Of a stretch of 64,000 bases of DNA, positions 37,958 to 57,595 are shown in pieces; position 1 is the first letter of the stretch; each line of letters begins with the position of its first letter. Both the position numbers and the translations under genes were made by a program. The stretch comes from an uncultured Methanoregulaceae archaeon (GTDB taxonomy: Archaea; Halobacteriota; Methanomicrobia; Methanomicrobiales; Methanospirillaceae). The notes under the pieces were generated by a model. The model saw only the letters and a list, made by a program, of their open reading frames with translations. It was not told where the DNA came from and searched no databases. Where the stretch lies: positions 640,001 to 704,000 of the forward strand of contig CAVTTL010000001.1 in assembly GCA_963737635.1 (NCBI GenBank), read 5' to 3'.

Positions 37958-38282
37958 TCACAATACTAAGTTAGTATTTAAGGTCACCGATATCGCACTC
38001 GTACCTTTTGTCAGAAACGTGCCGAGCTTATCCAGCTGTTGATTAAAGCCCCCTTGCATTCCTTGTACCGCCATACCGGCTTTTGGTCCGGTTGCGTTTA
38101 TCGTGACTTTCAGTTTCAGTTTGGTCTTGCCATTCTCAGGGATCGGGGTAAGTTCGGTCACCTGATCGATTTCTGTGGCTTCTTTTTGTCCCTCAGTCCA
38201 GGCTTTGGCCGCGTATGACAGCTTCGAATTCGTCTCCACCACCGTAAACGTGCCTTCCATCGGCCATCTCGTTCCTTTGTAG
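37958..38282 (-). pseudogene. 5'-truncated SRPBCC/AHSA1-like gene remnant
   Basis: YKGTRWPMEGTFTVVE..KLSY..ENGKTKL..GMQGGFNQQLDKL; the frame runs straight into the terminal CRISPR repeat. Confidence 0.65.
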
Positions 38283-41200
38283 TTTAGTCCGATTCAAACG
38301 TAAGCTGGTGAACGTACCCAATCGAGTATGCACCGTATTTCAATCCTAATTTAGTCCGATTCAAACCACCGGTCCACTTCCTCAACCATATGGTAACGGT
38401 TCTTTGATTTCAATCCTAATTTAGTCCGATTCAAACGATAACAAGATCACCGTCCAGCGTATGCGGATTATTCATTTCAATCCTAATTTAGTCCGATTCA
38501 AACGGGCAAAATCCCACATTGCCGATATTTATCCGGGGATTTCAATCCTAATTTAGTCCGATTCAAACGCCCGAAATCGTCCGAGTAGGACATCTGATTG
38601 TTTATTTCAATCCTAATTTAGTCCGATTCAAACTTTCTCTGAGGCATTGATCTGCAGTGCGGTATTGTTATTTCAATCCTAATTTAGTCCGATTCAAACG
38701 TATCTCGCCGAAGGCGTGCTCGTAGGATGCGATCTCAGATTTCAATCCTAATTTAGTCCGATTCAAACCTTATGACCCGGGTCCTGCCCGGGAGGGCCCT
38801 GTTGATTTCAATCCTAATTTAGTCCGATTCAAACTCCAGGATTCCGCCTCACCTCATGGCGATGATTCCCCATTTCAATCCTAATTTAGTCCGATTCAAA
38901 CCCGTCTACCGGACCGTTTGCTCTGGCACCGGGTTTATTTCAATCCTAATTTAGTCCGATTCAAACACGTACCTCCTCTCGCACACGGCAGTTCCGCCGG
39001 GAAATTTCAATCCTAATTTAGTCCGATTCAAACCGTTGGTCGCTGGGCGTTTCCCCGCTGAACGATGTTATTTCAATCCTAATTTAGTCCGATTCAAACA
39101 CGGCACGGTGAATCAGACCTGCATCGGGCCGTTGTGCATTTCAATCCTAATTTAGTCCGATTCAAACTCAAGGATTCAACGATGCAAACGAAATCCTCCA
39201 CACCATTTCAATCCTAATTTAGTCCGATTCAAACCAGCGATGTGCTTCTTGCGTTGGGGGGTATCATCCTATTTCAATCCTAATTTAGTCCGATTCAAAC
39301 TTGAAAAGACAGATTATAAAAAGGACGGTTAACGAAATTTCAATCCTAATTTAGTCCGATTCAAACTGCTTGAGGCTCGCGGGTTTACCTGTGTTCCTCA
39401 AAATTTCAATCCTAATTTAGTCCGATTCAAACGACCATCACTCACCTCCCACGGCTTTCAGGTACGGCATTTCAATCCTAATTTAGTCCGATTCAAACCG
39501 ACGGTCTGGCTTTCTTCAGGATCCGTGATACCGATTTCAATCCTAATTTAGTCCGATTCAAACTGCCCGAAGGTGCCGGGGAAGTCAGCGAAGATACCAT
39601 TTCAATCCTAATTTAGTCCGATTCAAACATCATGGCGCCACGATCGATGAGATCGTCCAGAAGAATTTCAATCCTAATTTAGTCCGATTCAAACCTCAGC
39701 CAGGCGCAGTCCGCATACTCGTACGCGACATTTCAATCCTAATTTAGTCCGATTCAAACCACGAGCGTTTTCACGTCACTGGTGATGCCCGTCGTATTTC
39801 AATCCTAATTTAGTCCGATTCAAACATTCCCCGGGCTCGGCACGACGACGGTGATATTCTCATTTCAATCCTAATTTAGTCCGATTCAAACGTTATCGTG
39901 GTTTTCTCGGTCGCGGTGAACTGTTTGATTTCAATCCTAATTTAGTCCGATTCAAACCCCCGGCGATGGCATCGTGCGACATCAGGAAATATAATTTCAA
40001 TCCTAATTTAGTCCGATTCAAACCGTTGTCCTTGATCTTCTGGCAGTGGACCATGGCTCATTTCAATCCTAATTTAGTCCGATTCAAACCCTCAGTCATC
40101 TGAAGAGAGGACTTCATGGCTTCCCATTTCAATCCTAATTTAGTCCGATTCAAACCGTGGTGAGTCGGCAGCGTCTCCGACCGGGGGCTCGTATTTCAAT
40201 CCTAATTTAGTCCGATTCAAACTTGATTCAGGTCGATCGGAGTGGTGCAGGATATTGTTATTTCAATCCTAATTTAGTCCGATTCAAACGCCGGGTATAT
40301 GCCGAACAATTCACTAGCTACGGAATTTCAATCCTAATTTAGTCCGATTCAAACACCTCGTCGGGATCTGCCCGAAAACCCAGATATTTTATTTCAATCC
40401 TAATTTAGTCCGATTCAAACCCATCGTTCAGACCCCCATGAGGACTGGACGCATCTCATTTCAATCCTAATTTAGTCCGATTCAAACGATGCCGACCTCA
40501 CGGGTGCCAACCTCAAGCGTGCCGACCTCAATTTCAATCCTAATTTAGTCCGATTCAAACGTGGTGGTATTGCACAGCAGGATCCGACGTTACTAAACCC
40601 ATTTCAATCCTAATTTAGTCCGATTCAAACAGAGCAAGGGCAGCACATTCGCTTCCGCCAACATCTATTTCAATCCTAATTTAGTCCGATTCAAACCCGG
40701 ATCGGTTTGCCTGCGAAGGCCTCTGCGAAGGCATTTCAATCCTAATTTAGTCCGATTCAAACACCATGGGATGTCATACACAAGACGTTCTGTTTCACAG
40801 ATTTCAATCCTAATTTAGTCCGATTCAAACTTTATATGGTCGCACCGAAAAAAGAATCTGTGGCACATTTCAATCCTAATTTAGTCCGATTCAAACTTTA
40901 TATGGTCGCACCGAAAAAAGAATCTGTGGCACATTTCAATCCTAATTTAGTCCGATTCAAACACCCGTCACGGCTCAGGCTGTGGCATCTGATGCGACAT
41001 TTCAATCCTAATTTAGTCCGATTCAAACTGGCGAAACCCCAATTCACATCTTCGAGCTTCTTGATCATTTCAATCCTAATTTAGTCCGATTCAAACAGTA
41101 GGTGCCGCTGCGCAACAGGCCGAACAAGCCATATTTCAATCCTAATTTAGTCCGATTCAAACAATGTCTCGGTAATAGCAAAAGGTGCCCCAGTTGATAT

Positions 41201-41463
41201 TTCAATCCTAATTTAGTCCGATTCAAACCGGAGAGCAATGCATGGCACTCTGATTCGAATTTCAATCCTAATTTAGTCCGATTCAAACCGTGCTGTAAAC
41301 GATTCTGCAGTCCGGATTTCAATCCTAATTTAGTCCGATTCAAACTACTGAGATCTTGTCGTGGCAAGTATTTCAATCCTAATTTAGTCCGATTCAAACC
41401 ATACTCTCGCATCCGACCGGATATGCCATAGTTATTTCAATCCTAATTTAGTCCGATTCAAAC
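38283..41463 (-). CRISPR. CRISPR array, 30-bp repeat GTTTGAATCGGACTAAATTAGGATTGAAAT, 48 full repeats plus one truncated, 48 spacers (24-43 nt, mostly 35-38)
   Basis: Identical repeats counted by eye. Orientation from the ATTGAAAT 3' end, the leader next to cas2 and the degenerate repeat at the low-coordinate end. Confidence 0.99.
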
Positions 41464-41649
41464 ACGCCCCAAAATTGGGCCTTTTTCCCAGCAAAGTATG
41501 GAACTCTGCAGGTAGCGGGCTGAGAGGATGCTGTCGACGACAGACTTTTTCCCAGCAAAGTATGGAACTCTGGTGGTTCGATCATAGATAATCTGGGATC
41601 GGTAATAACGTTTTCACTATAAGAAGATCCCCGACAATCGAGGGAGAGA
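41464..41649 (-). promoter_or_regulatory. CRISPR leader
   Basis: Non-coding region between the cas2 stop and the first repeat. Confidence 0.8.
41481..41572. repeat. Perfect 28-bp direct repeat flanking a 36-bp unique insert in the leader
   Basis: CTTTTTCCCAGCAAAGTATGGAACTCTG at 41481-41508 and 41545-41572. Confidence 0.95.
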
Positions 41650-41913
41650 CTAGATAATAGAACACTGATCGGCCTTTTCAATTCCCATATTGTCGATCTT
41701 CACCAGATCCTGCGATCTGATCACATAAAAACGAACCGAATCCTCATCCTTTTTGATAATTTTTTTCAACCCGTATTCGATATCGGCAAACTGCCGGTCA
41801 GTCAGCTCTCCTTCAAACACCGAGTTCTGTACCCGGACAAGGTACCGGCGGAGATACTTGCAGACTTTTGCAACGCGCTCCACCGAGACATCGTAGACAA
41901 TAATCACGTACAT
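41650..41913 (-). CDS. cas2: CRISPR-associated endonuclease Cas2
   Basis: MYVIIVYDV, VQNSVFEG, DSVRFY. Confidence 0.97.
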   Translation of the reverse strand: MYVIIVYDVSVERVAKVCKYLRRYLVRVQNSVFEGELTDRQFADIEYGLKKIIKKDEDSVRFYVIRSQDLVKIDNMGIEKADQCSII

Positions 41914-41920
41914 CAGGGAA

Positions 41921-43024
41921 TCACCACCAGATTGCAAACGGCTTGTAATCCTTCATGCCGGTAAACTGCTTCCCGAGTTTGATGCACTCAAGATACACCA
42001 ATCGCTGGTACGAGACGTTTCTCCCAAGATCCCGGTGTTTGATAGTCGTCTCCAGTTTCTCGTTGAACTCGGTCAGGAAGACCCGTTTTCCCTTATCGTT
42101 GAGCAGGCACGAGCCGAGATCGGTCCGGAAATCCTCAGGCGAGATCATATCCTTGTTGACTAATTTGAAGATCACGCGGTCGACCAGCAGTGGTTTGAAA
42201 ATTTCAGAGACATCAAGCGAAAGCGAAAAACGTCGTTCCGACGGCTCGTGAAGGAACGAGATCGTCTGGTCGAGCTGGGTCTTGTAGATAGCGTTGATCG
42301 TCAGACCGTACACCAGTGAGTTCCCGAAACTGATCATGGCATTGAGCGGATTTGCCGGTGGTTGCCGGCTCCGGCCGCCAAACGAGAATCCGTTCTTGAG
42401 AATCTTGTCGAAGGTGCTGTAATAGAGGGAGCGGATGTTCCCTTCCGCGGCAAGCAGCTGCCCGACATTGTTGATCGTCTCTGCCTGCTCCACGAACGCC
42501 AGGATGTCCGCGATCTCCCGCTCGACCGGTTTTCCCTCGTTCCGGTAATATTCGAGATTTTTGAGGATATTTGCTGCCGAACCGGTCACGAACTTCTTTG
42601 CGAGAGCGAGCCGCTTCTTTGGGTCGAGATACCACGAGGCCTGCCGTATGTGCATCTCACCGGAGAGCAATGAATCCTTCGGGATGAGCGTACTCTCGTA
42701 GTGCCCGTAATAGCCAAAGAAATGGATCGGCACCGAATATTTCGAAAAGAACGATATCACCCCTGATGTAAGCGAGATCCTTCCGAAGGCAAAGATCGCA
42801 TCGGTCTGTTCTATCGGGAGCGGGCGCTTCTCATATTCCGGTGCATCGGAAATATCGTCCGGCTCAAGCGGGGATTCCTCACCCTCGTATTCCTCCACGA
42901 ACTCCGGTTTCTGCGCGGTGCCGGGTGTTTTCTCCGGGATTTCCTCCTTTTTGCTGACAAAATAGAGCGTGTTCTGTTTCCGGATCAGTTTCCCGTTCTT
43001 GATGAGGTAGAGGTTCTTTTTCAT
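41921..43024 (-). CDS. cas1: Cas1 (type I-B)
   Basis: AEGNIR..YY, NAMISFGNSLVY, FLHEP..RRFSLSLDVSEIFKP. Confidence 0.97.
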   Translation of the reverse strand: MKKNLYLIKNGKLIRKQNTLYFVSKKEEIPEKTPGTAQKPEFVEEYEGEESPLEPDDISDAPEYEKRPLPIEQTDAIFAFGRISLTSGVISFFSKYSVPIHFFGYYGHYESTLIPKDSLLSGEMHIRQASWYLDPKKRLALAKKFVTGSAANILKNLEYYRNEGKPVEREIADILAFVEQAETINNVGQLLAAEGNIRSLYYSTFDKILKNGFSFGGRSRQPPANPLNAMISFGNSLVYGLTINAIYKTQLDQTISFLHEPSERRFSLSLDVSEIFKPLLVDRVIFKLVNKDMISPEDFRTDLGSCLLNDKGKRVFLTEFNEKLETTIKHRDLGRNVSYQRLVYLECIKLGKQFTGMKDYKPFAIWW

Positions 43025-43026
43025 GA

Positions 43027-43542
43027 TCACACCCAGCAGAATTCCATGTACGCACATTTCCGGCAGTAGGTCTTTTTTTCCGGGGGCGGCGGGCTTTCGA
43101 GACTGATGATACCGGGAATGGCTGAAAGGATCCCTTCGAGTTCGGCCCGGGCGGCATCGGTGAGCTCAACATGCACCCGTTCCCGGCTCTCCGGGTAATC
43201 GAGGACGCCATCGACGTTCTGGAGCCCTTTGACGGTCACGAGATAATAGATGTAATACAGGAGCTGGTACCGGTGCGCGCGCTCCAGTTTCCTGGATTTT
43301 TTTACTTCGTGGACGGTGATCGTATCGCCGGTTTTGATAAAATCGATGCCGACCCGGTTGTCGATGATCACGTCCTTTTTCTCCCGCTCGTAGGATGTTT
43401 CGTGGATGAATCTTCCCATGGCAACGAGATCCGAGCCGGACTCCATGGTGATGTGATGCGTAAACAGCCAGAGTTTGGTTGTGCAGATGATGTAGTAGTT
43501 GACCTGCGTGCCGGTGAAAAGTTCCTGCGATGAGATGTCCAC
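43027..43542 (-). CDS. cas4: Cas4
   Basis: GTQVNYYIIC..KLWLF, IDF, HEVKKS, QLLYY, CRKCAY.EFC. Confidence 0.96.
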   Translation of the reverse strand: MDISSQELFTGTQVNYYIICTTKLWLFTHHITMESGSDLVAMGRFIHETSYEREKKDVIIDNRVGIDFIKTGDTITVHEVKKSRKLERAHRYQLLYYIYYLVTVKGLQNVDGVLDYPESRERVHVELTDAARAELEGILSAIPGIISLESPPPPEKKTYCRKCAYMEFCWV

Positions 43543-43603: not shown

Positions 43604-43889
43604 TTACAGCCACTTATACTTTTTATGAGCTTGCTCGATGGGTCATTATCTCGTTAACGAAAACAACGGCACCTTCGATTTCGTAAAAAGCGGTGAATGT
43701 GCGTCCGATATGGAACCGGTAAATTCTCACGCCCGGCGGAGGTTCAGGAGTTCCTTGTCTCCCCTTTTTTCCGGGGAACGGATCATATTCAAGGGATTTC
43801 AGGTAGGTTTCGATGATCCTTATGCTCTTGTCTCTTTGAAAATTGACGAATCCGATCGCATCGATATCGATGCTGACCTCAAACGTCAC
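43604..43889 (-). CDS. RelE/ParE-family toxin (several apparent indels)
   Basis: DPFPG..YRFHIGRTFTAFYEI; alternate frames restore GDKELL and IEQAHKKY. Confidence 0.75.
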
Positions 43890-44092
43890 TTCCTGATCTC
43901 CGAGAGCGGGACGTATCTGTTCCGTTTCCTGATGCGCCCAGTCTCTTCAATCAGCCGGGTCTCGGAATCTCTCCTGATGAGATTCCCGATGGCATCGTCA
44001 TAGGTCTCTCCCGGTTTTCTGAGCTGGTGGACAGTCTCCCACGTGCTGAGGGATACGGGAATCCTTTTCGTGGCGCACTCCTGTCCGGTCAT
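43886..44092 (-). CDS. Putative antitoxin (archaeal RHH/VapB-like)
   Basis: KRIPVS..TW..L..GETYDDAI..YVPLSE; overlaps the toxin start. Confidence 0.75.
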   Translation of the reverse strand: MTGQECATKRIPVSLSTWETVHQLRKPGETYDDAIGNLIRRDSETRLIEETGRIRKRNRYVPLSEIRK

Positions 44093-44159
44093 GAGAAGAT
44101 AGTAGGCACTGGATTTATTTACAATTTCCGGAGAGGACAGGGGCGGCACGGGTAATCGG

Positions 44160-44325
44160 TCCGCGCAGGCCGGTGATGGCGACGGCCTGTTTGAGGGAAA
44201 GCCACGGCCCGATCTCATCGTACAGATCGCGGCCGGGTCGGGGGAACGTCAAACGTCCGCCCTTCAAGCCCGGGATTGAATTCCCGGATGAGCCGGATCA
44301 GGTGGTCTGTATCTACAGTATAGTG
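44160..44325 (-). pseudogene. Remnant of the 5' end of an AAA+ (COG1373-like) ATPase
   Basis: HLIRLIREFNP..VPPTR, then in a shifted frame DLYDEIGPWLSLKQAVAITGLR; truncated at Walker A. Confidence 0.6.
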
Positions 44326-44456: not shown

Positions 44457-45302
44457 TCAATTGATCTCAATCGAAACCTTCCCGCCACCCTTGCTTTTCT
44501 GGCCACCAAGTACAGTGATATTGTTCAATGCCGGGATGAGAATTTCATTGATTAATAGAAGCTGTGCATCTTGAACGGGTTTGGATGCAATTCCATCTAA
44601 CCAGAGATCGACTTTTTCTCCGCCGATAAACCGGGGTTTCCCAAATTCAAAATCGCTCTGTTTTACAACAATTTCCAAATCGCCTTTGAATATCGTCCCC
44701 GGTTTAACTTGTTCACCGGTAATAATCGCACCTTTGGCTGCTGTCCCGCTCTTCCGATCAATGCGGATACTTGTTTGGTCAATTCGATATTCACCGACTT
44801 CCGGCCAGAAATTGGGTGCACGAAGACATCCCATCAACCCAGCTGCACCGAAGAAATAGCAGACCGGGCAAAGACCAATCGAATTGTTATGGTTCTTCGG
44901 GATTTCAACTCTATTTTCTTCAATTTTTATCTCACAATTATGTTGACGATATTCAGATGGAGACAATTTCTTTTCAGCCAGTGATGGTCTTGATGCTGGA
45001 ATGCATGGTTTGAGAAAATCATCTGCGGGAGTCGCAAATTTTGACTTTAGATCGTTCTTCCTGGCAATAAGAATTTGTTCAACCTGATATCTGAATGCCC
45101 CTTTGAAACTAGATGCCGGAATCGCGGGTTTTCCATCTACAGAAAAGACCGGCCCCTTCTTTTCAGTGAGTGGGGAAGGCGTACCTCCGATATGGAGAAA
45201 TGATCCCTGCCTGACTGTAATTTTCAGAGGTATCTGGAATATTTGAATGATACCCTGATGCTTAATTTCAGGCAATGTGTTAATATGCTCTATGCTACTC
45301 AT
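44457..45302 (-). CDS. Cas7-group RAMP (Csm3-like), type III-F-like
   Basis: LHIGG, PAIPASSFKGAFR, CPVCYFFG, IRIDRKSGTA, LGGQKSKGGGKV G-loop. Confidence 0.9.
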   Translation of the reverse strand: MSSIEHINTLPEIKHQGIIQIFQIPLKITVRQGSFLHIGGTPSPLTEKKGPVFSVDGKPAIPASSFKGAFRYQVEQILIARKNDLKSKFATPADDFLKPCIPASRPSLAEKKLSPSEYRQHNCEIKIEENRVEIPKNHNNSIGLCPVCYFFGAAGLMGCLRAPNFWPEVGEYRIDQTSIRIDRKSGTAAKGAIITGEQVKPGTIFKGDLEIVVKQSDFEFGKPRFIGGEKVDLWLDGIASKPVQDAQLLLINEILIPALNNITVLGGQKSKGGGKVSIEIN

Positions 45303-45888
45303 TTTTAACCATCTCCGTATAATGCGTCAAAGAATTTACTTTTCGGATGAAGAATGCAATCTCAATGATGTCCTGTTTCATATCATACAACACCTTCACG
45401 TATTCAAAAATCTTCTTGAGCGCTGCTCTTTCAAATCTATTGGCCTTATCGATTTTGTATAAAAAATATTCCTCAACAATGGGAAAATTATGATTCTCAA
45501 TCACTTTTCCATAATCCTCCATATTCGGCAAATTGCATTTGATAATACTGAAGTGATCGAGTGTTAAAAACATTTGATTGATGGTGTAGGGTTTTTTAAT
45601 CAGCGATTCTTTTAATGCATTAGTTAATTCTCCCGCTTCCTGAATTGCGTTTTGTCGTTTAGAATCCCTTTCAGATTGTTGATATTCCTTCCGTAAGTCG
45701 CTGATTTTATCATCGATCTTCTTATTTACGCTAACAATGTCATTATTCTGAAATTTTGTTTTGAGATCCTTCCATTCGTTATGGTCAAAAATCTTGAATT
45801 TTATGAAGAAAATATCCGGGTCGTTTAATACACGTTTCATTACATCGTCCAGCGGGACACTAACAGTCATACTCATATTTCTCACCAA
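45295..45888 (-). CDS. Putative divergent Cas11 small subunit
   Basis: Apparently all-helical protein of about 195 aa between cas5 and cas7, overlapping both; assigned by position only. Confidence 0.6.
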   Translation of the reverse strand: MVRNMSMTVSVPLDDVMKRVLNDPDIFFIKFKIFDHNEWKDLKTKFQNNDIVSVNKKIDDKISDLRKEYQQSERDSKRQNAIQEAGELTNALKESLIKKPYTINQMFLTLDHFSIIKCNLPNMEDYGKVIENHNFPIVEEYFLYKIDKANRFERAALKKIFEYVKVLYDMKQDIIEIAFFIRKVNSLTHYTEMVKNE

Positions 45889-46504
45889 TAAGGAGTTCAG
45901 GACCTTCTACAATACTATCTTCAAATAATGCTCTTTTATAGACTCCCCCAATTTTAGAAGTAGGATAGAATAAGTATCCATAACAAGGTTTTATAATTCT
46001 ATTGATGCCAAAGGAATGACATTCCTCTTCAAGGAGACGGCCATTCAAATAACCTGTAATTGTTTTCGGCTTGATTTCATCGATAAACGATAATTCACAT
46101 CTTCCAAATCCTTTGCTTTTCAGAGCACCAAGAACGATTTCTGTTTGTTTATTGGGGGGAAGATTCTCCGCTGCTTCATTTCTCAAGATGTAAATATCTC
46201 CAAGAACCGCTGCATTATATTGCGTCGGTTTGAGATATTCCAAAAAGATTGGCAATTTTGCAGTACCGGTAATTGCATCAAACGGTGCATAGGTAAAAAT
46301 GGCTTTTTCATATGTCCCTATTCTGAAAAAACCGATTGCCTGAATATCATGAAATCCAAAATATTCCTTGAAACACCCTTTCAGCGTGGATGTCGGAATA
46401 TTTTCAATACATGGCCGGAAAGTTCCCCCTTTGACCCGCTCTCCGATTGCAATTGCCGATGTACTTATGCAGTAATGAAGAAAACTGAGGGAGGCTTGGG
46501 TCAT
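45860..46504 (-). CDS. Cas5-group RAMP, type III-F-like
   Basis: IAIGER..IPTSTLKG and LGALKSKGFGRC G-loop. Confidence 0.8.
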   Translation of the reverse strand: MTQASLSFLHYCISTSAIAIGERVKGGTFRPCIENIPTSTLKGCFKEYFGFHDIQAIGFFRIGTYEKAIFTYAPFDAITGTAKLPIFLEYLKPTQYNAAVLGDIYILRNEAAENLPPNKQTEIVLGALKSKGFGRCELSFIDEIKPKTITGYLNGRLLEEECHSFGINRIIKPCYGYLFYPTSKIGGVYKRALFEDSIVEGPELLIGEKYEYDC

Positions 46505-48459
46505 GTACCTCTCACCTCATTGATCAACTTGTGAAAATCCAGAATCTGACGGATGGACAGCCCCTGCTGCATCAGGTCGGTTATGAAAGAGTAATGTGAG
46601 GGATCTTTCATTATTTCGAGTTGGACTACCATTTTACTTTGGGTTTTTTGATCAATATCCGACAACCGGTGAATCCAATGACTTGTTCTTTGATCGTCAT
46701 CTTGTAACTTTTTTCTAAGGGATCGATATTGTTGTACAGTAAGTGAAAGAAGACTGCTTCCTGCAATCTGAATGTTAATATCCTTCTTTGGTTTTGACAG
46801 GAATTCCCAGTGATTCCGGTAAGGGTATTTGGTACGGGCAATGCTCATGGAAAATTTGATAGGGGAACTGTCAAGACATTCTGGAAAATGAGCTTCCAGA
46901 AGGTCATAAAATAAATCAAGCACCGGCAGGATTTCTTCACTGGATTTGACTTTGAATATCCCGAATTCGTTATATCCTTCGATGGGGAAAAGAAATGAAT
47001 CATCCGTATATAGGGGTGATTGATCCCGTTGTTTTATGGTAAAGATCTGAGCGGAAAAATCATCCAGGAAAGATTGATAATCACGAATAAAACTCATTTG
47101 AACTGCAAGGGGCCTGAACATCTCTATCAGAATCTTCTTATCACCAGCTTGAACCGGTTGCATTGTAGGATGAGAATAGACATACTTTTTGAATAATGTA
47201 CGAATTGTTTCATCCAGATGTTGTTGATCAAGGGAGATTTTCAGCCATGCGGCCTTTACATCCTCTTCATCCCACTTGGCATAAACAGCTGCGGGCTCAC
47301 CAATTTCCCGAATGTTATAGCAATCATCACATAAATGCTCATGAATTTTGTCTTTGATCCTCTCTTGACCGGGTCTTACCTGGCAGGAATCACATAAGGG
47401 TGGTGAAATTTCTGCCGGAATTTCAGGACCGAGCCGTTTTTCAAATAATTTGAGATTTCTGTTAGTCCGTTTTTCATGAAATGTTTTGTATTGGCGACCT
47501 ATTGACGAAGTCAGGAGATTTAATTCCGCTTCCAGTTCCTTGTAATCGAGGATGAGACCGGAATCAATAAATGGTTTCATTAATATCTGGAGTGGAAGTT
47601 CCTCCTCTTTGGGAACAAAAAGACACAGAAAATCAGCCGTGGAGAATAAAACATAATCTCTCGTATTTTCATTTTCTGAAAATGCCTTGATTATATCAAT
47701 TCGTTTTTGGAATACATTGAGATCCTGAAGCCGTATCAATTCATTGGAGAATTTTACTTGACAAAAAACAAGACGGTAAATCCATTTTCCTTTTTGATTA
47801 ATCTGGTCAATTCTTCCCCCTGTCGCTTCGTTGATAGAGTTTATTTCATTGCCGCAGTAGATCAGCTTATTTTTTTGTTGATCAAACCAGGAATGTTTTT
47901 TCAAAATCCTGAATATCTTTCCAGTCAGATCTAAATGAGTGTATAGGTCGGTAATATTGAATGGTGCTGATTTATCCTCGGCGGTAAGCAGAAGATTGTC
48001 TTCATATGTTTTAAGAAATTCTTCGGAAAATGAACACTTATCAATAAAGCGAAACATTTCCTTTAATTTTTCTGGTGTATCAAATACAGCCCACTTTTTC
48101 CCGGCATTCATTTCATTTTGATAAAACTTTGGATTCCAAAGAACAAATATACCGTCGGATACTTGACCCTTTTTACCCCAAGTGCGGGAAATCGAGGCTG
48201 CGATTTCATCTGCGATATTCGTAAGAAGCACATCGGAAAGATGCTCTTTTGGGATTTTTTTGGTTGAAGAAAGAGATCTTATTTCATCGCTGAACTGCCC
48301 CCACCAACTCGGGGATGTAGGTGGGGCAATTCCAATTTGAGAAAAGTCAAAATTATGAAATGTATGGCCGGTAAATTGAATATTCTGATTTTTTAAAGAA
48401 TCTTTATCCACGAGCTTCCCGATATCATGCAGCTCTGCGATGAAAGCCCGATCATTCAT
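46501..48459 (-). CDS. cas10: Cas10-like large subunit, HD nuclease motifs intact, no GGDD
   Basis: AELHDIGK, IADEIAAS, LYTHLDLT, CDSC..LCDDC zinc finger; no GGDD anywhere in the protein. Confidence 0.85.
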   Translation of the reverse strand: MNDRAFIAELHDIGKLVDKDSLKNQNIQFTGHTFHNFDFSQIGIAPPTSPSWWGQFSDEIRSLSSTKKIPKEHLSDVLLTNIADEIAASISRTWGKKGQVSDGIFVLWNPKFYQNEMNAGKKWAVFDTPEKLKEMFRFIDKCSFSEEFLKTYEDNLLLTAEDKSAPFNITDLYTHLDLTGKIFRILKKHSWFDQQKNKLIYCGNEINSINEATGGRIDQINQKGKWIYRLVFCQVKFSNELIRLQDLNVFQKRIDIIKAFSENENTRDYVLFSTADFLCLFVPKEEELPLQILMKPFIDSGLILDYKELEAELNLLTSSIGRQYKTFHEKRTNRNLKLFEKRLGPEIPAEISPPLCDSCQVRPGQERIKDKIHEHLCDDCYNIREIGEPAAVYAKWDEEDVKAAWLKISLDQQHLDETIRTLFKKYVYSHPTMQPVQAGDKKILIEMFRPLAVQMSFIRDYQSFLDDFSAQIFTIKQRDQSPLYTDDSFLFPIEGYNEFGIFKVKSSEEILPVLDLFYDLLEAHFPECLDSSPIKFSMSIARTKYPYRNHWEFLSKPKKDINIQIAGSSLLSLTVQQYRSLRKKLQDDDQRTSHWIHRLSDIDQKTQSKMVVQLEIMKDPSHYSFITDLMQQGLSIRQILDFHKLINEVRGT

Positions 48460-48529: not shown

Positions 48530-48645
48530 TCGCTCCGTTTAAGGTGGCGTCGGAACACCGGGACGGTAACGGGACGGTCGCCCAGCTGCGGGTTTTATTC
48601 ATAGATGAGCCGGATCAGGTATTGATTATCCCCAGTGTAGTACAA
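48530..48645 (-). pseudogene. Second remnant of the same ATPase 5' end
   Basis: DNQYLIRLIYE*NPQL..VPVFRRHL; shares GATGAGCCGGATCAGGT with 44287-44303. Confidence 0.5.
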
Positions 48646-48754: not shown

Positions 48755-50192
48755 ATGATCCCTTCGGGAAGTCCGGTCTCAACACAACTGGCTAACATAG
48801 ATTCTTCTGTACGATTCACCTTCTCGTTGACCGGGGATCCTTTTGTTGACGCACGGCATTACTGCAATAGAACTGATGACCGGAAAATCCTGGCCGGACA
48901 TTCAGGATGAGGATTTCAAAAAAGCAGCGGAATCTCTTGTTGATCTCTACCTGACACCAGCCTGGTCAAAGGAACTCAATTCGCTTTTTCCAAACAGCAG
49001 TTACATCCAGTATGCAAAGGGGTATAACAGAAATGAAAAATCCCGGGAATTTCTCTTCGAACTGATTCAAGGACTGGAGAATCTACAGACAACTCTCGAC
49101 TACTGCGTCTTTTGTGGCGCACCTGCCTTCAGAAGAAAAGATCACTCACCATTCGTGAAATCCCAGATTCCCCTTGTGGGATCATCAAGTTTCACTAATT
49201 ATTTTCCTTCGTTCCATAATGGCGTAAGTATTTGTGCCAAGTGTGCACTCGCCATCCAGTTCGCTCCACTCGTATCATACAAAGCCGGAGGAAAACCCTG
49301 CATCGTTTCAAGCAACAACCCCTGTGTGATTCAGGAGTTGGGACGCGAAGCAATGCATTACATTCACGAACAGAAACTTCTCGGTGCGTACCAGCTGAAG
49401 GAAACCTCAGGTATTCTTGATGAGAAGTTCCGGTCGCCACAGAACGCAATCTTCCATCTTGCATACAAGGTTACCCGACTTTACCGTACAAAAGGCATCA
49501 GCAGTGAGAATGAAGAAATTACTCTCTATCATATCGACAACTACAACCAGAATCCAAAAGGTATCGCAATATATACACTCCCGAACAATGTTTTCCGTTT
49601 TGTCGCAGTGGTCATGAGCAGTCCGGAGTACCGGGCCGCGTGGTTTGCCTTATTGTCACGCCACTATTCAAAATCAAAAAAGGAAACGGAAGATGTCCCC
49701 CTCTGGAAAGTGGCATCGAACCTGATTCATAACCAGCTGTTGAATAACCAGAGTATCCTCTGGGCGTTTAAGGATGATGAAAGAAAAACCCTGACGATTC
49801 CGTTCATCGTTGTCGAACGGTATATGGAACTGGTGAAAGGCATGAACAAGCAACGAATTGAAAAGATCAAAACACTCGCGGACAGAATAGCCGAATGCAT
49901 CGAAAAAAGCGGAGATAAAAAACGGGTCAATGCCTTACAATCTGCAAGAGATCTCGTCTCCTTCCGCAACCAGCTTCGGCTGATCCTTAAGGACTGGCAG
50001 AAACAGGGACGCGACAAACCCTTGATTGAATTTGATGATTATATCGAAGTTCTCATTCCTGGGGATTATGCCGGCTGGACAGAGGTCCGGGACCTCATCG
50101 TGATCAGGTTATATGAAAAACTTCATCCCCTGCTTGCACGGACAGCGGATGAAGATGATATGGATGACTCAGAAAAAGGTGGAAATAAATGA
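48755..50192 (+). CDS. cas8: Type I-B Cas8 (Cst1/CXXC-CXXC family), +1 frameshift near 48854
   Basis: TGDPFVDAG motif split across frames, FPNS, CVFCG, PLVGS...NYF, CAKC..AIQFAP. Confidence 0.88.
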
Positions 50193-51250
50193 AAACAATC
50201 ATTGGAGCATATCTTATTGACGCACCGTTCTCTGCGCTCAACAACAGCGGAATCGACCAGAGAGCTGCAAATGAAAATGAAGTTGCGACAAAAACGATCA
50301 AATCTCCCGAAGGTGTCCGGCCGTATGTGTCGGCGCAGGCGCTCAGGTACTGGTGGAGAAATGTGCTGGTAAGTAAATATGACTGGAAGTGTTCTCCGGT
50401 AACAAAACTGGATAAGAACCAAGCCATCACCCAAGCCGATCCACTCACTTATCCTGATGATGATATTTTCGGGTATATGAGTGCCCGGCGCGAACCGACC
50501 GGAAAAATTGACAAAAAAGGAAACCCGGTCTTGGAAAATGTAACGGTTACACGGGTTTCCCCCCTGAAATGCTCGCCGGCTATCGGTCTGCCGATTGCCC
50601 CGAAATCGGATTTTGGCGTAATGAACCGGCACCCGGAAGGCGATCCCGTTCTCTATAACCACCAGTTCTACAGCAATATCCTCAAAGGGATATTTGCTCT
50701 CGATATCGATCTTGCAGGAACTTTTACTTCCCTTGACAAGCCCGGTGCAAAAAACCTCTCGGAAGATCTTCGTAAAATCTGCGAAGAAAAAGGCATGAAA
50801 AAAGTCGATCCTGAGAATAAGAGCAAAGAATGGTACATTCTTCCTGAAGCACAGAAAAAAACCAGAATTATCCAGACAATATCTGCATTAAAATATCTCA
50901 ACGGTGGGGCGATGCAGACCCTGCATCACACGGATGTAACCCCGAAGCTGATCATTCTTGCCGTTCTCAATGGCGGGAATAATATCTTCATGGACGTCTT
51001 CCCCCACCGCAGGTACGATGAAGGTCTCATCAACCTTGACGCACTCAGCGAAGTGCTGACCGATTACAAACAAGATCTCTTGTCCGGGGTCTATATCGGG
51101 AGAATGGCAGGTTTTGGATCCGACAAAGACAAAGAACTGGATTCCTTCAAGGCTCCCGAAGGGATAAACCTGACCCTTGCCACACCGGCACAGGCAATCG
51201 ACGGATTTGTTAAAGAAATTTCCCAGAGTAAGAAAATCTTCGGTGCCTGA
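50189..51250 (+). CDS. cas7: Type I-B Cas7 (Cst2/DevR)
   Basis: ALNNSG, PYVSAQALRYWWR, DDDIFGYM, TRVSPLK, GGAMQT..TDVTP. Confidence 0.95.
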   Translation: MKTIIGAYLIDAPFSALNNSGIDQRAANENEVATKTIKSPEGVRPYVSAQALRYWWRNVLVSKYDWKCSPVTKLDKNQAITQADPLTYPDDDIFGYMSARREPTGKIDKKGNPVLENVTVTRVSPLKCSPAIGLPIAPKSDFGVMNRHPEGDPVLYNHQFYSNILKGIFALDIDLAGTFTSLDKPGAKNLSEDLRKICEEKGMKKVDPENKSKEWYILPEAQKKTRIIQTISALKYLNGGAMQTLHHTDVTPKLIILAVLNGGNNIFMDVFPHRRYDEGLINLDALSEVLTDYKQDLLSGVYIGRMAGFGSDKDKELDSFKAPEGINLTLATPAQAIDGFVKEISQSKKIFGA

Positions 51251-51252
51251 AT

Positions 51253-51912
51253 ATGGAATTCCTGCGCGTGGAGATATCGGCGATGACTGCGTCATTCCGG
51301 TATCCCATGTTCGTTGTTTCCTACCAGCCGACCTATCCGGTTCCACCGGTCTCTACACTCTACGGCCTTTTGTCTGCGGCCAAAGGATCAAAGGTTGCTC
51401 TTGATGAAGTCAACATCGGGTATTCGTTCACATCAGAAGGGAAAGGAATCGATCTTGAACGAATCTATGAATATGGCGATGAGAGCGAGAAAAAACCCGT
51501 GCACAGTCTCGGGACAAACATTGTCCAGAGAGAGTTTCTGTATAACTGTTATCTGACGCTTTACCTGTCGGATACCCGGTTTGCAGAATATTTCCAGAAC
51601 CCGGCGTACACCCTGCTCATGGGGAGGCAGACCGATCTGGCATACATAAAATGCATCAGGACCGTGGAACTTGATAAGAGACCGGATGTCGAAATCAATC
51701 ACACCATGGTTCCCTTCACCGGAGAAATTCCCGGTCAGATCATTTCCCTCCCATCCGATTTCACGGATACCGCACAGAGAAAACCCCTGAATGTAAAGAG
51801 TTATGCGATAATCACATCGCCACAACACATTCATGACGGTTTTTTCGATGCGGAAAAAGAGTGTGGGGTATTTATTCATGATTTCACCGGTGCTGGCAAA
51901 GAAAAACGGTGA
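51253..51912 (+). CDS. cas5: Type I-B Cas5
   Basis: TASFRYP..QPTYPVPPVSTLYGLLSAA, REFL, MGRQTDL. Confidence 0.95.
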   Translation: MEFLRVEISAMTASFRYPMFVVSYQPTYPVPPVSTLYGLLSAAKGSKVALDEVNIGYSFTSEGKGIDLERIYEYGDESEKKPVHSLGTNIVQREFLYNCYLTLYLSDTRFAEYFQNPAYTLLMGRQTDLAYIKCIRTVELDKRPDVEINHTMVPFTGEIPGQIISLPSDFTDTAQRKPLNVKSYAIITSPQHIHDGFFDAEKECGVFIHDFTGAGKEKR

Positions 51913-54082
51913 GACGCTCCGCGATCATACCCAGAACTGTCTTGAACTTTTTGTCTTTTTCAAAGATTTGTTTCCCGGGCTGGATCAGAAATGCGGATAC
52001 CCTGAATTTTATGATGATATCGCCACAGCATTGTTCTTTCATGATTTCGGGAAAGCCTCAACCGGATTTCAGCGCCAGTTCCAGCCAAATAATCCCCAAT
52101 ATCATTATCGTCATGAAATCCTTTCAGTGCCGTTTGTTGAATCACTCCATTGGGGCGATACGGAATTTATTAAAGAACTGGTGCTGACTCATCACAAAAC
52201 CTTGGATCAGCTCAGCGATTATGTTGAACAGGAAGATTCACTTGATCCCGGTTTTGCTGATCGTTTATCTGAGATCAAAGAAAACCTCCCATACCTTAAT
52301 GACCTCATTGAGGATTTTCAACAACTCCCTGCTTGCAGTGAACTACCGCATAAGCCGCAAAAAATGGCCAGCCTCGATGTTTCAAAAGAGTGCTGGGAAA
52401 ATGTTTTACGGACAATGTACCGGGAAAACCGGGAGTCGTCCGATAAAAATGCCCGGTTAAGAAGAATTTTTGGCAAGGGCTTTGTCAACAGCTGCGATTA
52501 CATGGCATCTGCCGGGATCCGTACCGTACTAAAGCCGCTTGCCGATATTCACCCGGTATTTCCGTTTCAAAATCTTACAACCGTTCAGGATATCGTCGGC
52601 AGGACAAAAGGCAATGCGATCATTACTGCGCCGACCGGGTCGGGAAAAACCGAGGCTGCGTTGTTCTGGGCTACCTGCAACCTGGACGCAAACCGTGGAA
52701 ACAGGATATTTTACACTCTTCCCTATACAGCAAGCATCAATGCCATGTACGTCCGTTTGAAAAATGCATTATCTCCTAAGTACGCGGGTGAGGAGACCTG
52801 TGTCTCGCTGATGCACGGTAAAGCCTCGTACTATCTCTGGAAATTTTACGAAGAGACGGAACGCTTCGATTTTGTAAAATCCGTTTCAAAAAGGATTTAC
52901 AGTCCGTACAAAGTGATGACCCCTTTCCAGTCGATAAAACATTTTTTCTCGCTCAAAGGATACGAGATGGGGCTGCTGGAAACGTACCGGGGATTATTCA
53001 TCTTTGATGAGATCCATGCATATGATGCAAAAAATACAGCACTTATCCTTGGCATGACCGATTTTCTGGTCAATACACTTGATGCAAAAGTCCTCGTCAT
53101 GTCTGCAACATTGCCCACCTTCATCCGTTCCCGGTTCGCCGAATGTCTCGATGTGTCCGAAGAGATTCGAATGACAGCTCCTGAACTGTCGAAATATCTT
53201 AGGCACCGGTGCACAATCCTCGATGGAGATATTTTTGATCATATCGATCTGATCAAACAAAATCTCCGTGAAAAGAGAAAAGTCCTCATTGTCTGCAATA
53301 CCGTCAAGCGGGCTCAGGACGTTTATGAATTATTAAAAAATGAGACCGGCAACCGTGCACTTCTCCATGGTAAATATACCTTGAATGATAGGGAGAAAAT
53401 CGAAGGAACACTTGGGGAACGGAAATTGCTGGTCGGCACCCAGACCATCGAAGTCTCACTTGATATCGATTACGATATCTGTTTTACCGAGCCCGCCCCG
53501 ATTGATGCCCTCATCCAGCGGTTCGGACGGGTGAACAGGAGAAAGAACGCGGACGGAACCCCGCAGAAAGGGATTTGCCCGGTCTTCGTGTTCACGAAAG
53601 GATCGGAGAATGATCGCTTTATCTATAATGAACAGAAGGTTTCAAAAACTCTCGATCTCCTGTCCGGCCTCGATCTGCTCCATGAAAATCTCCTGCAGGA
53701 TATCACCGACAAAGTCTATGACGACGGCTTCGGCTCGCAGGAAACAGAGTTCAACGAGACCCAAACCCTCTTCCTGCACCTGATTGACGAACAACAACCC
53801 TACTGTAGTTCGAATCGGAGCGAATCAGATTTTTACCGGCTGTTCAGTGCAGTCGAAGCCGTTCCCTTGTGTTACGCTGCTGTATATGATGAGTGCATAC
53901 AGTCCGGAAGAATTTACGACGCAATGAAGTACGTCGTGCCCCTCACGCTCGGGCAGTACCACAAACTGAAATCAGAAAACCGGGTGAGTGAGAATAAAGA
54001 ACGAATTGTTATCGATGCAAAATATGACATGGAAACAGGACTGCTGATCGGCCAGCGGGATCCGTCAGCGATGACCATGTAA
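51878..54082 (+). CDS. cas3: Cas3 HD nuclease-helicase
   Basis: TLRDH, HDFGK, RHE, HH, APTGSGKT, DEIH, SAT, QRFGRVNR. Confidence 0.97.
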   Translation: MISPVLAKKNGETLRDHTQNCLELFVFFKDLFPGLDQKCGYPEFYDDIATALFFHDFGKASTGFQRQFQPNNPQYHYRHEILSVPFVESLHWGDTEFIKELVLTHHKTLDQLSDYVEQEDSLDPGFADRLSEIKENLPYLNDLIEDFQQLPACSELPHKPQKMASLDVSKECWENVLRTMYRENRESSDKNARLRRIFGKGFVNSCDYMASAGIRTVLKPLADIHPVFPFQNLTTVQDIVGRTKGNAIITAPTGSGKTEAALFWATCNLDANRGNRIFYTLPYTASINAMYVRLKNALSPKYAGEETCVSLMHGKASYYLWKFYEETERFDFVKSVSKRIYSPYKVMTPFQSIKHFFSLKGYEMGLLETYRGLFIFDEIHAYDAKNTALILGMTDFLVNTLDAKVLVMSATLPTFIRSRFAECLDVSEEIRMTAPELSKYLRHRCTILDGDIFDHIDLIKQNLREKRKVLIVCNTVKRAQDVYELLKNETGNRALLHGKYTLNDREKIEGTLGERKLLVGTQTIEVSLDIDYDICFTEPAPIDALIQRFGRVNRRKNADGTPQKGICPVFVFTKGSENDRFIYNEQKVSKTLDLLSGLDLLHENLLQDITDKVYDDGFGSQETEFNETQTLFLHLIDEQQPYCSSNRSESDFYRLFSAVEAVPLCYAAVYDECIQSGRIYDAMKYVVPLTLGQYHKLKSENRVSENKERIVIDAKYDMETGLLIGQRDPSAMTM

Positions 54083-56145: not shown

Positions 56146-56827
56146 TCATCTCCGCGTCCTTTTCCGGGACCGGAGAGAAGAATCCACCGAATCCATCCAT
56201 GCAAGAGCATCCGGGGTCTCCTCCCAGGCCCGGCGGTTGTCAAGGGCATAGACCACCGCCTCGCTCCTGTCTCCCCGGCTCATATACTCCGGGTGACGGG
56301 CAGGGAGCTTCTTTGTTCCCAGCAGGTACTGCGGGACAAACGGGTTCTCATCAACTGCTATCCGGAGGCAGGCATCCGCTGCCGGGCCCCGGCCCTCCTG
56401 CCGGAATTTCAGGAGCGCCCGGGAATACAGCCAGACAGCGGAACCGTCCTCTTCATACTCCTTAAGGAGATTCCCCAGCGCTTCGTTATCATCCTGTTCC
56501 AGCAGGCAGGTCGCCAGTTCGTACCTGGCCCCCTGGTTTGTCGTTCGGGTTGAGCCCGAGGAGATCGGTAAAAACGTCAATTGCCCGTGACCGCTCGCCC
56601 ATGAAGTGAAGCTGGAGCCCGAGCATGAACCGTGCACGCACTCCCTCCTCAAGAAGCCGGAGGGCCTCATTCTTATCAGGCATCGCTTCCTCAGCGAGAA
56701 TGACATATGCATCCGCACAGTCCCTTGAGATCGAAAGAGCCCGGCGGACCAGCTCAACCCGCTTTTTCCCCCGAGCATCAAACGCATCACAGATGATGTC
56801 CTGAGCCTCCGCGAGCGGCAATCTCAT
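56146..56827 (-). pseudogene. TPR-like helical protein, frameshifted near 56540
   Basis: RRALSISRDCADAYVILAE..LNPND|NQGARY..WLYSRAL..NPFVPQYL. Confidence 0.7.
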
Positions 56828-57595
56828 CGGTCATCCCTCCCTTTTACCACATTCACAAACCCGAACCCGAAACTGTTCCTCTCGCCAAACCCGGCATCGA
56901 GCCCGAACCCGACAATCTTCCGCTGCATGTCGTTCATATGGCTCCAGGAAAATTCCCAGAGGCTTCCTGCCGCCCCGTAACTCTTCCCGTCAATGATGTA
57001 CCGGGTATGCACGGTTTTTTTGAACAGGAATTCCTGGAAGAGCGGGAGCGTGCCAACCGAGGTCCCATACGCATCGTTGTATTTTTTGATCATGTTTTCT
57101 GAAAGCTGCTTAATGAATGCCTCAAACGAGATCTGCGGACGCCAGTACACGTTACCGGGGCCGGCGTTCATCAGCCGGCACCGCATAGAGATCGTAATTG
57201 TACTCCGGGATACGCAGCAGGATCGGCGTCGCGCAGATGATCCGGACCGGACCCTGGCCGAGTGAGGTCTCAACCGCTCTTACTCCATCGAGCGCAAACG
57301 CGCAGTCACCGATATGAATTTCTTTTTCAGCGTGACTCGTGGTAAGGTACTGCGCGAGGTGTTCAATGATCGTGCTGCCCGGCGATGCGATCATGAAGTG
57401 GCGCACGTCTCCCGTTTTCATATCGCCGAACGGGAAAATGTTCGAAAAACAGAACTGCTTGTAGCCGGGCTTGTCGTGCAGCAGGGGAAAACCCGCTTCC
57501 GCGATAAGTGAATAAACAAAACCCTGGAGCTTGTGGTACTCAAGCGAGACATCCTTCTGATCGTTTTTCGATATGAGCCGGAGCAGGAGGCGCAT
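56824..57595 (-). CDS. cas6: Cas6 endoribonuclease (+1 frameshift near 57152)
   Basis: YHKLQGFVY, LHD..GYKQFCFSNIFP, TPI, AGFGERNSFGFG G-loop. Confidence 0.92.

Follow-up and report, generated by a model that had tools for sequence, protein, structure and literature searches.

A 64,000-nt stretch of the genome of an uncultured Methanoregulaceae archaeon (assembly GCA_963737635.1, contig CAVTTL010000001.1, positions 640,001 to 704,000; hereafter the window, whose own numbering is used throughout) carries a type I-B CRISPR-Cas locus in which a second effector module of four genes occupies positions 44457-48459. This module is a member of CRISPR-Cas subtype III-F, which is already catalogued, reportedly since the 2020 classification. 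On balance, we favor the reading that a horizontally acquired III-F cassette in the I-B locus uses shared CRISPR RNAs (crRNAs), acts through a target-activated HD nuclease, and makes no cyclic oligoadenylate (cOA). In the literature searched, III-F was mentioned in classifications, surveys, and reviews, with no experimental paper among them, and the subtype is one of the few in class 1 without published biochemistry. With intact effector genes, one array, one cas6, a complete I-B partner, and occurrence in several soil metagenomes, the window locus offers a clean test case. It raises the question of what an HD effector lacking cOA synthesis and, apparently, RNase activity adds to a type I system with the same guides.

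The module consists of cas10f, cas5f, cas11f, and cas7f, in this order on the minus strand (Table 1), with overlaps of 4, 29, and 8 nt in the list of open reading frames (ORFs). Proteins were searched with subtype-specific CRISPR profiles from the PADLOC library and with generic models from Pfam and NCBIfam. All four matched III-F profiles over their full length, and these profiles outscored the III-A, III-D, and type IV models by tens of orders of magnitude. Therefore, we conclude that the module belongs to III-F and not to III-A, III-D, or IV-C. Cas10f aligned through residues 5 to 645 with positions 3 to 581 of the 585 in PDLC01558, a profile whose label (Cas10a/Cas10f) is common to III-A and III-F. 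The next-best PADLOC models for Cas7f were Csm3 (8e-18) and then typeIV_Cas7 (2e-3; more exactly 0.0023, with no single stretch passing alone). In the Pfam and NCBIfam scan, nothing significant was found for Cas10f (the Csm1/Cas10 models gave no match), Cas5f, or Cas11f, and only RAMPs/Csx7 matched Cas7f. The cas11f ORF opens at a TTG, with ATGs 4 and 6 codons further in, and its true start may be either of these.

These results bear out a sequence-only reading made earlier of the same DNA, which had described four overlapping minus-strand genes in the order cas10, cas5, small helical protein, and cas7, at coordinates that the ORF list reproduces exactly, and had called the module III-F-like. 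The grouping with III-A, III-D, or IV-C that could have overturned that assignment was not found with PADLOC, Pfam, or NCBIfam profiles, and structural models bore out the Cas10 and Cas7 folds. The separate cas11f gene sets the module apart from III-H, which, according to PMC12669027, has no separate cas11 and carries a diverged Cas11 in place of the Cas10 C-terminal domain. III-A (Csm) membership is contradicted by the missing GGDD motif, by Lys49 in place of an Asp in Cas7, by the presence of one Cas7 gene, and by the lack of an NCBIfam Csm1 match. By PADLOC scores and the top 50 fold matches, Cas7f is not a backbone of the Csf2 family of type IV-C.

Cas10f comprises an N-terminal HD nuclease domain, palm 1, a four-Cys finger, a degenerate palm 2, and a C-terminal helical domain. 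Its HD motif is H11 D12, its finger is C356-x2-C359...C377-x2-C380, and its HD stretch aligns with that of the III-D Cas10 8bmw_K. In a 40-sequence alignment of relatives, H11 and D12 were kept in 39 sequences and D84, H175, and all four finger Cys in 40. The GGDD motif was found in none of the 40. In the window protein, FPIEGYNEF occupies residues 491 to 499, and the model puts G495-Y496-N497-E498 at the place of GGDD, in the loop before the palm-2 strand 499-503; this equivalence is one of fold position and of the known motif, not of residue-level structural alignment. Across the relatives, the first of these columns is Gly in 16/40, the second Tyr in 39/40, the third variable, and the fourth Glu in 40/40, which makes E498 invariant; D411, also in palm 2, is present in 31/40. 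The polymerase/cyclase palm of Cas10f is thus inactivated. Alignment and model together agree with the sequence-only reading, in which HD motifs and zinc finger were kept, GGDD was absent, and FPIEGYNEF stood near the expected site. A published survey gives the same hallmarks for the subtype: the HD nuclease is generally kept in III-F, whereas cyclase motifs and effectors are missing from every member (PMC11229360).

The Cas10f model (AF2/AlphaFold; pLDDT 90.2, pTM 0.91) was nearest in Foldseek to III-A Csm1 chains (best 8e-12, TM ~0.5, 10 to 12% identity), with III-D Cas10 lower. Against the PDB sequences searched, among which there is no III-F structure, the Cas10f profile found nothing beyond weak, local similarity to the III-D Cas10 8bmw_K. 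The Cas7f model (pLDDT 81.9) was nearest to Csm3, III-D Cas7 paralogues, and type VII Cas7. Type IV chains were absent from the top 50 fold matches of either model, in a library that IV-C structures may postdate. III-A Csm complexes (Streptococcus thermophilus 6ifn, Thermococcus onnurineus 6o7e) therefore provide, in Csm1 and Csm3, the nearest solved folds, and their assembly follows the same logic: Cas10 and Cas5 plus Cas11 and Cas7 in multiple copies. They are unlike the window module in the low Cas10 identity, in GGDD and the Cas7 Asp, and in having both Csm3 and Csm5, whereas the window module has one Cas7 gene and no Csm6 was found with it.

In a profile alignment of the Cas7f family with the III-D Cas7 8bmw_G, K49 faces the Asp of a TDNP stretch, and a single-sequence alignment of Cas7f with Csm3 4qts_C also sets K49 against that Asp, which we take to be the catalytic residue of Csm3. 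Because Lys49 stands in its place, Cas7f of the window locus has probably lost RNA cutting, besides the loss of cOA synthesis. Among 28 family members, this column holds Lys in 18, Asp in 8, and Glu in 2. The main III-F clade, which has a separate Cas11f and includes the window locus, has Lys in 18/20 (Asp in L028 and L034), while all eight members of a divergent III-F clade have an acidic residue (Asp in six, Glu in L044 and L049). Four Methanoperedens-type members of the divergent clade (L039, L041, L047, L053) have a Cas5 of 339 to 347 aa and no separate Cas11; their long Cas5 is probably a Cas5-Cas11 fusion.

As the sequence-only reading had it, the cassette sits between cas4-cas1-cas2 and the I-B Cascade operon, with one array and one cas6, and PADLOC and the repeat search agree. 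On the minus strand, the four genes are followed by two small ORFs, cas4, cas1, cas2, the leader, and the array; the divergent genes cas8b-cas7b-cas5b-cas3 occupy the plus strand, and cas6b is again a minus-strand gene, 2.7 kb past cas3. Because the leader lies on the cas2 side, the minus strand is taken as the reading strand of the array, and the final 8 nt of its repeat on that strand are ATTGAAAT. The repeat gave 48 forward and no reverse matches, and no other array of that repeat exists in the genome (2.46 Mb in 4 contigs, 90% complete). The most common spacer length is 36 nt (22/47 spacers), and, apart from a 17-nt chance match, none of the 47 spacers matched the source genome anywhere but in the array. 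The 16S gene scores 1579 bits on the archaeal SSU model, in agreement with an archaeal host. The genome holds one Cas10f, one cas6, one Pfam RAMP gene (Cas7f), and one array. Csx1-HEPN had no match in the whole 2.46 Mb of this 90% complete genome. Searches of the same genome for SAVED and Csm6-HEPN were also empty and are uninformative because their controls were equally silent; CARF families as such were not searched.

DNA of the window is present in 13 metagenome runs of six studies, all from soil or of unspecified origin, and the window was compared with contigs of four runs from four studies. The sequence of the III-F genes was the same in the contigs of all four runs, with no indels listed inside the four genes. 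Elsewhere, single-nucleotide indels separated the window from the independent contigs, which carry one extra base at 43736 and at 44162 (4/4 runs each) and lack one at 48853 (3/3 covering runs) and at 57152 (2/2). Removal of base 57152 restores one intact 257-aa Cas6 ORF (runs X3 and X5), and removal of base 48853 moves the cas8b start to the ATG at 48755, giving 478 aa. From these indels, we conclude that the window assembly contains scattered 1-nt errors and that the split cas6 and shortened cas8b start are false breaks; a real cas6 pseudogene was considered and rejected, as contigs of both runs covering the site restore the frame. With the 1-nt corrections the I-B set is complete: Cas8b, Cas7b, Cas5b, Cas3 (HD and helicase), Cas6b, Cas4-Cas1-Cas2, and the array. 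Other frameshifts in the source genome should be distrusted. At 45489-45540, within cas11f, two contigs of run X6 share only about 50 nt with the window and continue into unrelated sequence on both sides, while another X6 contig spans this stretch unchanged; the divergent contigs probably come from a distant relative or a chimera.

The cassette is markedly more AT-rich than the host genes, as had been noticed from the sequence alone: G+C content is 39.0% in the III-F module, 46.6% in the I-B effector genes, 51.8% in cas2-cas1-cas4, 53.8% in cas6, and about 55% in the remainder of the window. The span in which G+C falls is bracketed by an imperfect 52-nt direct repeat (repeat search family D1) with 73% identity between copies and a 17-nt exact core. 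Across the 2.46-Mb genome this core is found at these two places and nowhere else, and the related loci all lack it. Upstream of cas10f, similarity to L063, the closest relative with context, stops about 85 nt before the ATG. Because of the bracketing repeat, this end of similarity near the ATG, and the drop in G+C, the repeat looks like an insertion scar or a duplicated piece of promoter. The two copies were also considered as remnants of a split gene, on the basis of a similar 16-aa plus-strand stretch; stops flank it and no ORF is present, and the repeat was kept as noncoding. No contig in the four runs joined across the cassette to give a cassette-free joint, in data whose contigs drop rare variants, so that a cassette-free strain may still exist. 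Cas10f was absent from 40 related genomes (24 of the same genus and 16 of the same order), and the best same-genus match of the I-B Cas3 had 35% identity, versus 53% for a match in another family of the order. Because of the missing Cas10f and the lack of a close same-genus Cas3, the whole CRISPR island looks foreign to this lineage and horizontally acquired.

Relatives of Cas10f are rare. The family gave 149 matches with E ≤ 0.001 among the 8000 candidates scored from 5.8 billion 90%-identity clusters, 298 clusters at 50% identity with E ≤ 0.001 among 1.84 billion representatives, and 51 loci across 185,579 species with one genome each; none was found in the plasmid and phage collections searched. 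Sixty loci (L011 to L070) were annotated, and 18 with only a piece of Cas10f were set aside, leaving 42 modules that hold Cas10f together with Cas5f or Cas7f. Context was scored with hidden Markov models (HMMs) seeded from the window genes and from PADLOC-named clusters of the same loci, and the counts are therefore lower bounds. In the flank available, a type I effector gene or cas3 was found beside 20 of the 42 modules, cas6 beside 22, adaptation genes beside 16, an array beside 17, and any of these beside 27. A figure legend of the 2025 classification update says that most III-F loci are without arrays. For 17 modules the flank reaches 5 kb or more in each direction; type I genes were present beside 11 of these, and a cas gene of any sort or an array beside 13. 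The sequence-only reading had taken the nested arrangement for an exceptional one; it is instead the commonest state of the family in this sample (11/17 fully flanked loci).

The gene order was the same in every related locus in which all four genes were found. The cassettes of relatives are co-oriented with the type I genes and lie at varied positions inside I-A, I-B, or I-D operons (Table 1), with junctions of 0 to 25 nt in six loci (L015, L019, L023, L026, L029, L034) and one-sided tight junctions in L013 (downstream), L018 (upstream, to cas6), and L049 (cas1/cas2). In arrays beside relatives, the repeats end in ...TTGAAA(C/G/T) or ...CTGAAA(C/G), an 8-nt handle of the kind also seen in the window. 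In a quick maximum-likelihood tree of the Cas10f family (IQ-TREE), the window protein is sister to L062/L063 (81% identity), of which L063 lies in an Hmari-like I-B locus, a kind other than that of the window. L012, from an Hmari-like I-B context, and L013, from a Tneap-like one, form a sister pair (branch lengths 0.08 and 0.10), and a six-member I-A group stays together. Context labels on the tree need 20 changes against a minimum of 8. Cassettes that are close kin thus occupy type I loci of different kinds, which points to repeated movement of the cassette and not only co-inheritance.

Two further features were seen among the relatives. PDC-S05, a PADLOC candidate defense family (E 9e-62 for an L017 copy), recurs upstream of the III-F cassette within type I operons, in I-D and Hmari-like I-B contexts, and one L017 copy lies between cas5d and cas10f. 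In L040, L042, L045, and L048, cas10f is in two or more ORFs, as are cas7f, cas10d, cas3d, and cas6 in L040; either the loci are decaying or their assemblies contain indel errors like those of the window.

What the four genes are, the state of their motifs, their context, and their intactness in several metagenomes are shown directly; the scheme that follows, on how crRNAs might be shared and what the complex might contain, bind, and cut, is a proposal. Cas6b would cleave the single 48-repeat array transcript into crRNAs with an 8-nt 5' handle, and the same crRNAs would load the I-B Cascade and a Csm-like III-F complex, in which Cas10f and Cas5f would each be present once, the latter on the handle, with multiple Cas7f and Cas11f subunits along the guide. 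Once a complementary target is bound, the Cas10f HD nuclease would become active and cut nearby single-stranded DNA and perhaps RNA; by analogy with other type III systems, this target is most likely a transcript. No cOA would be made because palm 2 lacks GGDD, and the backbone would probably leave the bound RNA uncut, given Lys49. The likely gain would be a second use of one spacer set that does not depend on a protospacer-adjacent motif (PAM). Borrowing of I-B crRNAs is most likely, as it fits the single array and single cas6, the co-orientation of relatives in type I operons, and the handle-type repeats nearby. We lean toward RNA as the target because of the likeness to type III, the acidic Cas7 site in the divergent clade and in two main-clade members, and the precedent for PAM-free back-up. 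That precedent is the III-B system of Marinomonas mediterranea, which reportedly uses the I-F crRNAs of a coresident type I system as a back-up against type I escape (PMC5576922). That system belongs to another subtype; its cyclase is active, it brings adaptation genes of its own, and it forms a separate locus, not a cassette inside the type I operon.

Several points weigh against this reading. The 18 runs listed include no RNA data set, and the window cassette is divergent from the I-B effector operon, with an upstream region of its own of 295 nt. Its 39% G+C, against 47% in the I-B genes and 55% in the flanks, suggests a recent arrival that is perhaps not functionally integrated. Loss of the catalytic Asp of Cas7 is atypical of type III and makes the kind of target less certain. 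In four of the 17 relatives with full flanks (L011, L022, L035, L044), no cas gene lies within 8 to 10 kb, although cas1 is found elsewhere in all four of their genomes and cas6 in three. The context counts are lower bounds and not independent annotation, and the Cas10f tree covers the family only, with the Thermotoga lettingae prototype not among the loci retrieved. Finally, there are at least four 1-nt assembly errors in 19.5 kb of the window.

One alternative keeps the shared crRNAs and changes the target: the III-F complex would bind double-stranded DNA (dsDNA) in a PAM-dependent manner, forming an R-loop, as type IV-C complexes do. A 2026 paper (PMC13676074) reports that IV-C complexes bind PAM-flanked dsDNA with crRNAs of other loci, which triggers collateral HD cleavage, and proposes that type IV derives from III-F, whose Cas10f architecture is similar. 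Both cOA synthesis and the Cas7 catalytic Asp are gone from the main III-F clade, the two losses named for IV-C, and the cassette lives beside DNA-targeting type I systems with PAM-selected spacers. However, Cas7f is far nearer to type III Cas7 (Cas7_IIIf 1e-76) than to Csf2 (typeIV_Cas7 2e-3), and neither model has a type IV chain among its top 50 fold matches, with the caveat on library age given above. The Asp or Glu in 8/8 divergent-clade members and the Asp in two of the main clade point to RNA binding in the family, and a second PAM-dependent DNA binder beside a type I system would be of less obvious benefit. We therefore think an IV-C-like mode unlikely. It would matter if true: sensing of dsDNA would mean that type IV behavior originates within type III, while RNA sensing would make the module a minimal PAM-independent back-up.

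The remaining alternatives question whether the module works at all, or works as a nuclease, or has really lost its cyclase. The cassette could be a passenger, a recent foreign insertion that is decaying, unexpressed, or not assembled with host crRNAs and so has no current function. A G+C content 16 points below the flanks, the bracketing repeat, the absence of Cas10f from 40 relatives (24 of the same genus), and the cas10f genes in two ORFs in four other loci fit this idea; four intact ORFs with conserved catalytic and structural residues, found unchanged and free of listed indels in contigs of four runs, each from a different study, beside 48 identical repeats and an I-B set that is complete after assembly corrections, make it improbable. 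A role independent of nuclease activity, in which the complex only binds RNA or DNA to block or regulate, for example, in transcript silencing or tuning of type I activity, would be compatible with the loss of both the cyclase and Cas7 RNase sites, and tight insertion in type I operons could mean a regulatory link. Conservation of the HD residues (H11 and D12 in 39/40; D84 and H175 in 40/40) is hard to explain without catalysis, and we regard such a role as very improbable. We give almost no credence to a canonical cOA-signaling III-A or III-D system with a palm motif that is merely unusual in sequence. Its fold is nearest to Csm1, and E498 is invariant with D411 in 31/40, but GGDD is found in 0/40, Tyr496 replaces the second Gly, the third position varies, the NCBIfam and Pfam Csm1/Cas10 models are silent, and the genome has no Csx1-HEPN match; surveys also report no cyclase motifs or effectors in III-F (PMC11229360).

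Against known systems, nothing that defines subtype III-F differs in the window locus: it has the four genes in order, a Cas10 with HD domain and dead palm, a single Cas7, and a separate Cas11, and the module itself lacks cas6 and adaptation genes; as to cOA effectors, Csx1-HEPN had no match in the 90% complete genome. Particular to it are the archaeal soil host, the divergent orientation to a complete I-B operon, and the bracketing direct repeat. III-F, with Thermotoga lettingae Tlet_0097-0100 as its prototype, is predicted to target DNA (PMC8036902). IV-C systems of Thermococcus onnurineus and Pyrococcus abyssi, as described in PMC13676074, are likewise minimal class 1 systems with an HD-bearing Cas10-like subunit, Cas5, Cas7, and Cas11, and with no cOA, no Cas7 RNase, and crRNAs from other systems, a use of crRNAs that we infer for the window module. 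They differ in that Cas7f is not of the Csf2 type and in that IV-C loci mostly lie away from other cas genes, with a minority colocalized, whereas the III-F modules sampled are mostly inside type I operons. PAM-dependent dsDNA recognition is demonstrated for IV-C and conjectural for the III-F locus. Lodging of III-F inside type I operons was not described in the literature searched, which did not include the 2020 classification and its supplements, where it may be tabulated. We tentatively put forward a broader proposal that we regard as possible but doubtful: that III-F may be not a free-standing subtype but a mobile four-gene cassette specialized for type I operons (I-A, both kinds of I-B, and I-D), repeatedly inserted almost seamlessly at varying operon positions, cotranscribed, and loading host crRNAs, and that its main clade, lacking cOA and Cas7 RNase activity, may be a living intermediate between type III and IV-C that may sense dsDNA.

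Table 1. Features of the III-F module and I-B locus in the window, and positions of features in related loci
Feature	Position or loci	Strand	Basis or remark
cas10f, large subunit, 652 aa	46501..48459	minus	PADLOC Cas10a/Cas10f 2.1e-115 over residues 5-645
cas5f, 214 aa	45860..46504	minus	PADLOC Cas5_IIIf 1.1e-54 over residues 8-213
cas11f, small helical subunit, 197 aa from TTG	45295..45888	minus	PADLOC Cas11f 2e-37 over residues 13-194
cas7f, single backbone RAMP, 281 aa	44457..45302	minus	PADLOC Cas7_IIIf 9.7e-77; Pfam RAMPs 8e-15
52-nt direct repeat, imperfect, left copy	44273..44324		132 nt past cas7f stop
52-nt direct repeat, imperfect, right copy	48590..48641		130 nt upstream of cas10f start, in divergent intergenic region
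Two small ORFs, 88 and 110 aa, between cas4 and cas7f	43623..44218	minus	no PADLOC match; sub-threshold Pfam only
cas4	43027-43542	minus	PADLOC Cas4b 1.4e-57
cas1	41921-43057	minus	PADLOC Cas1b 1.8e-128
cas2	41650-41937	minus	PADLOC Cas2b 1.6e-28
CRISPR array, 47 spacers	38270..41463	minus	48 identical 30-nt repeats and a degenerate terminal repeat at 38270-38299
cas8b	48843-50192 as assembled	plus	PADLOC Cas8b 2.2e-44
cas7b	50189-51250	plus	PADLOC Cas7b 5.7e-51
cas5b	51253-51912	plus	PADLOC Cas5b 1.1e-63
cas3 with HD	51833-54082	plus	PADLOC Cas3b 8.4e-198
cas6b, split in window	56824..57595	minus	PADLOC Cas6b, N half positions 1-140 and C half 144-254, of 257
Divergent III-F clade	L036, L039, L041, L043, L044, L047, L049, L053		acidic residue at Cas7 site
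Cassette between cas7b and cas5b	L015, L034		gaps of 25 and 3 nt (L015), 2 and 0 nt (L034)
Cassette between cas5b and cas3	L029, L013		7-8 nt downstream
Cassette between cas3'' and cas8a, I-A	L019, L023, L026		0 nt upstream, 3-11 nt downstream
Cassette between cas5d and cas3d, I-D	L017, L040		gaps not tight
Cassette after cas3	L012, L059, L063		gaps not tight
Cassette between cas1 and cas2	L049		gaps of 21 and 6 nt
PDC-S05 matches	L015:1259-1489, L017:836-1120, L017:9023-9607, L040:3702-4247		

The two small ORFs between cas4 and cas7f resemble, in sequence pattern only and with no significant family match, an antitoxin followed by a RelE/ParE-like toxin; they are possibly a toxin-antitoxin pair, and their gene models are unsure because both ORFs show indel differences from the independent contigs. 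Within the array, two adjacent spacer-repeat units at 40798-40929 share an identical spacer, a duplication, and at 41199-41463 the three spacers next but one to the leader are short (30, 27, and 24 nt versus the mode of 36). The leader (41464-41649) contains a 33-nt direct repeat at 41481-41513 and 41545-41577, with the copies 64 nt apart. Contigs of all four runs break at 41508 and at 41541-41544 and continue into unrelated sequence, which suggests population variation or a second site that shares a piece of the leader.

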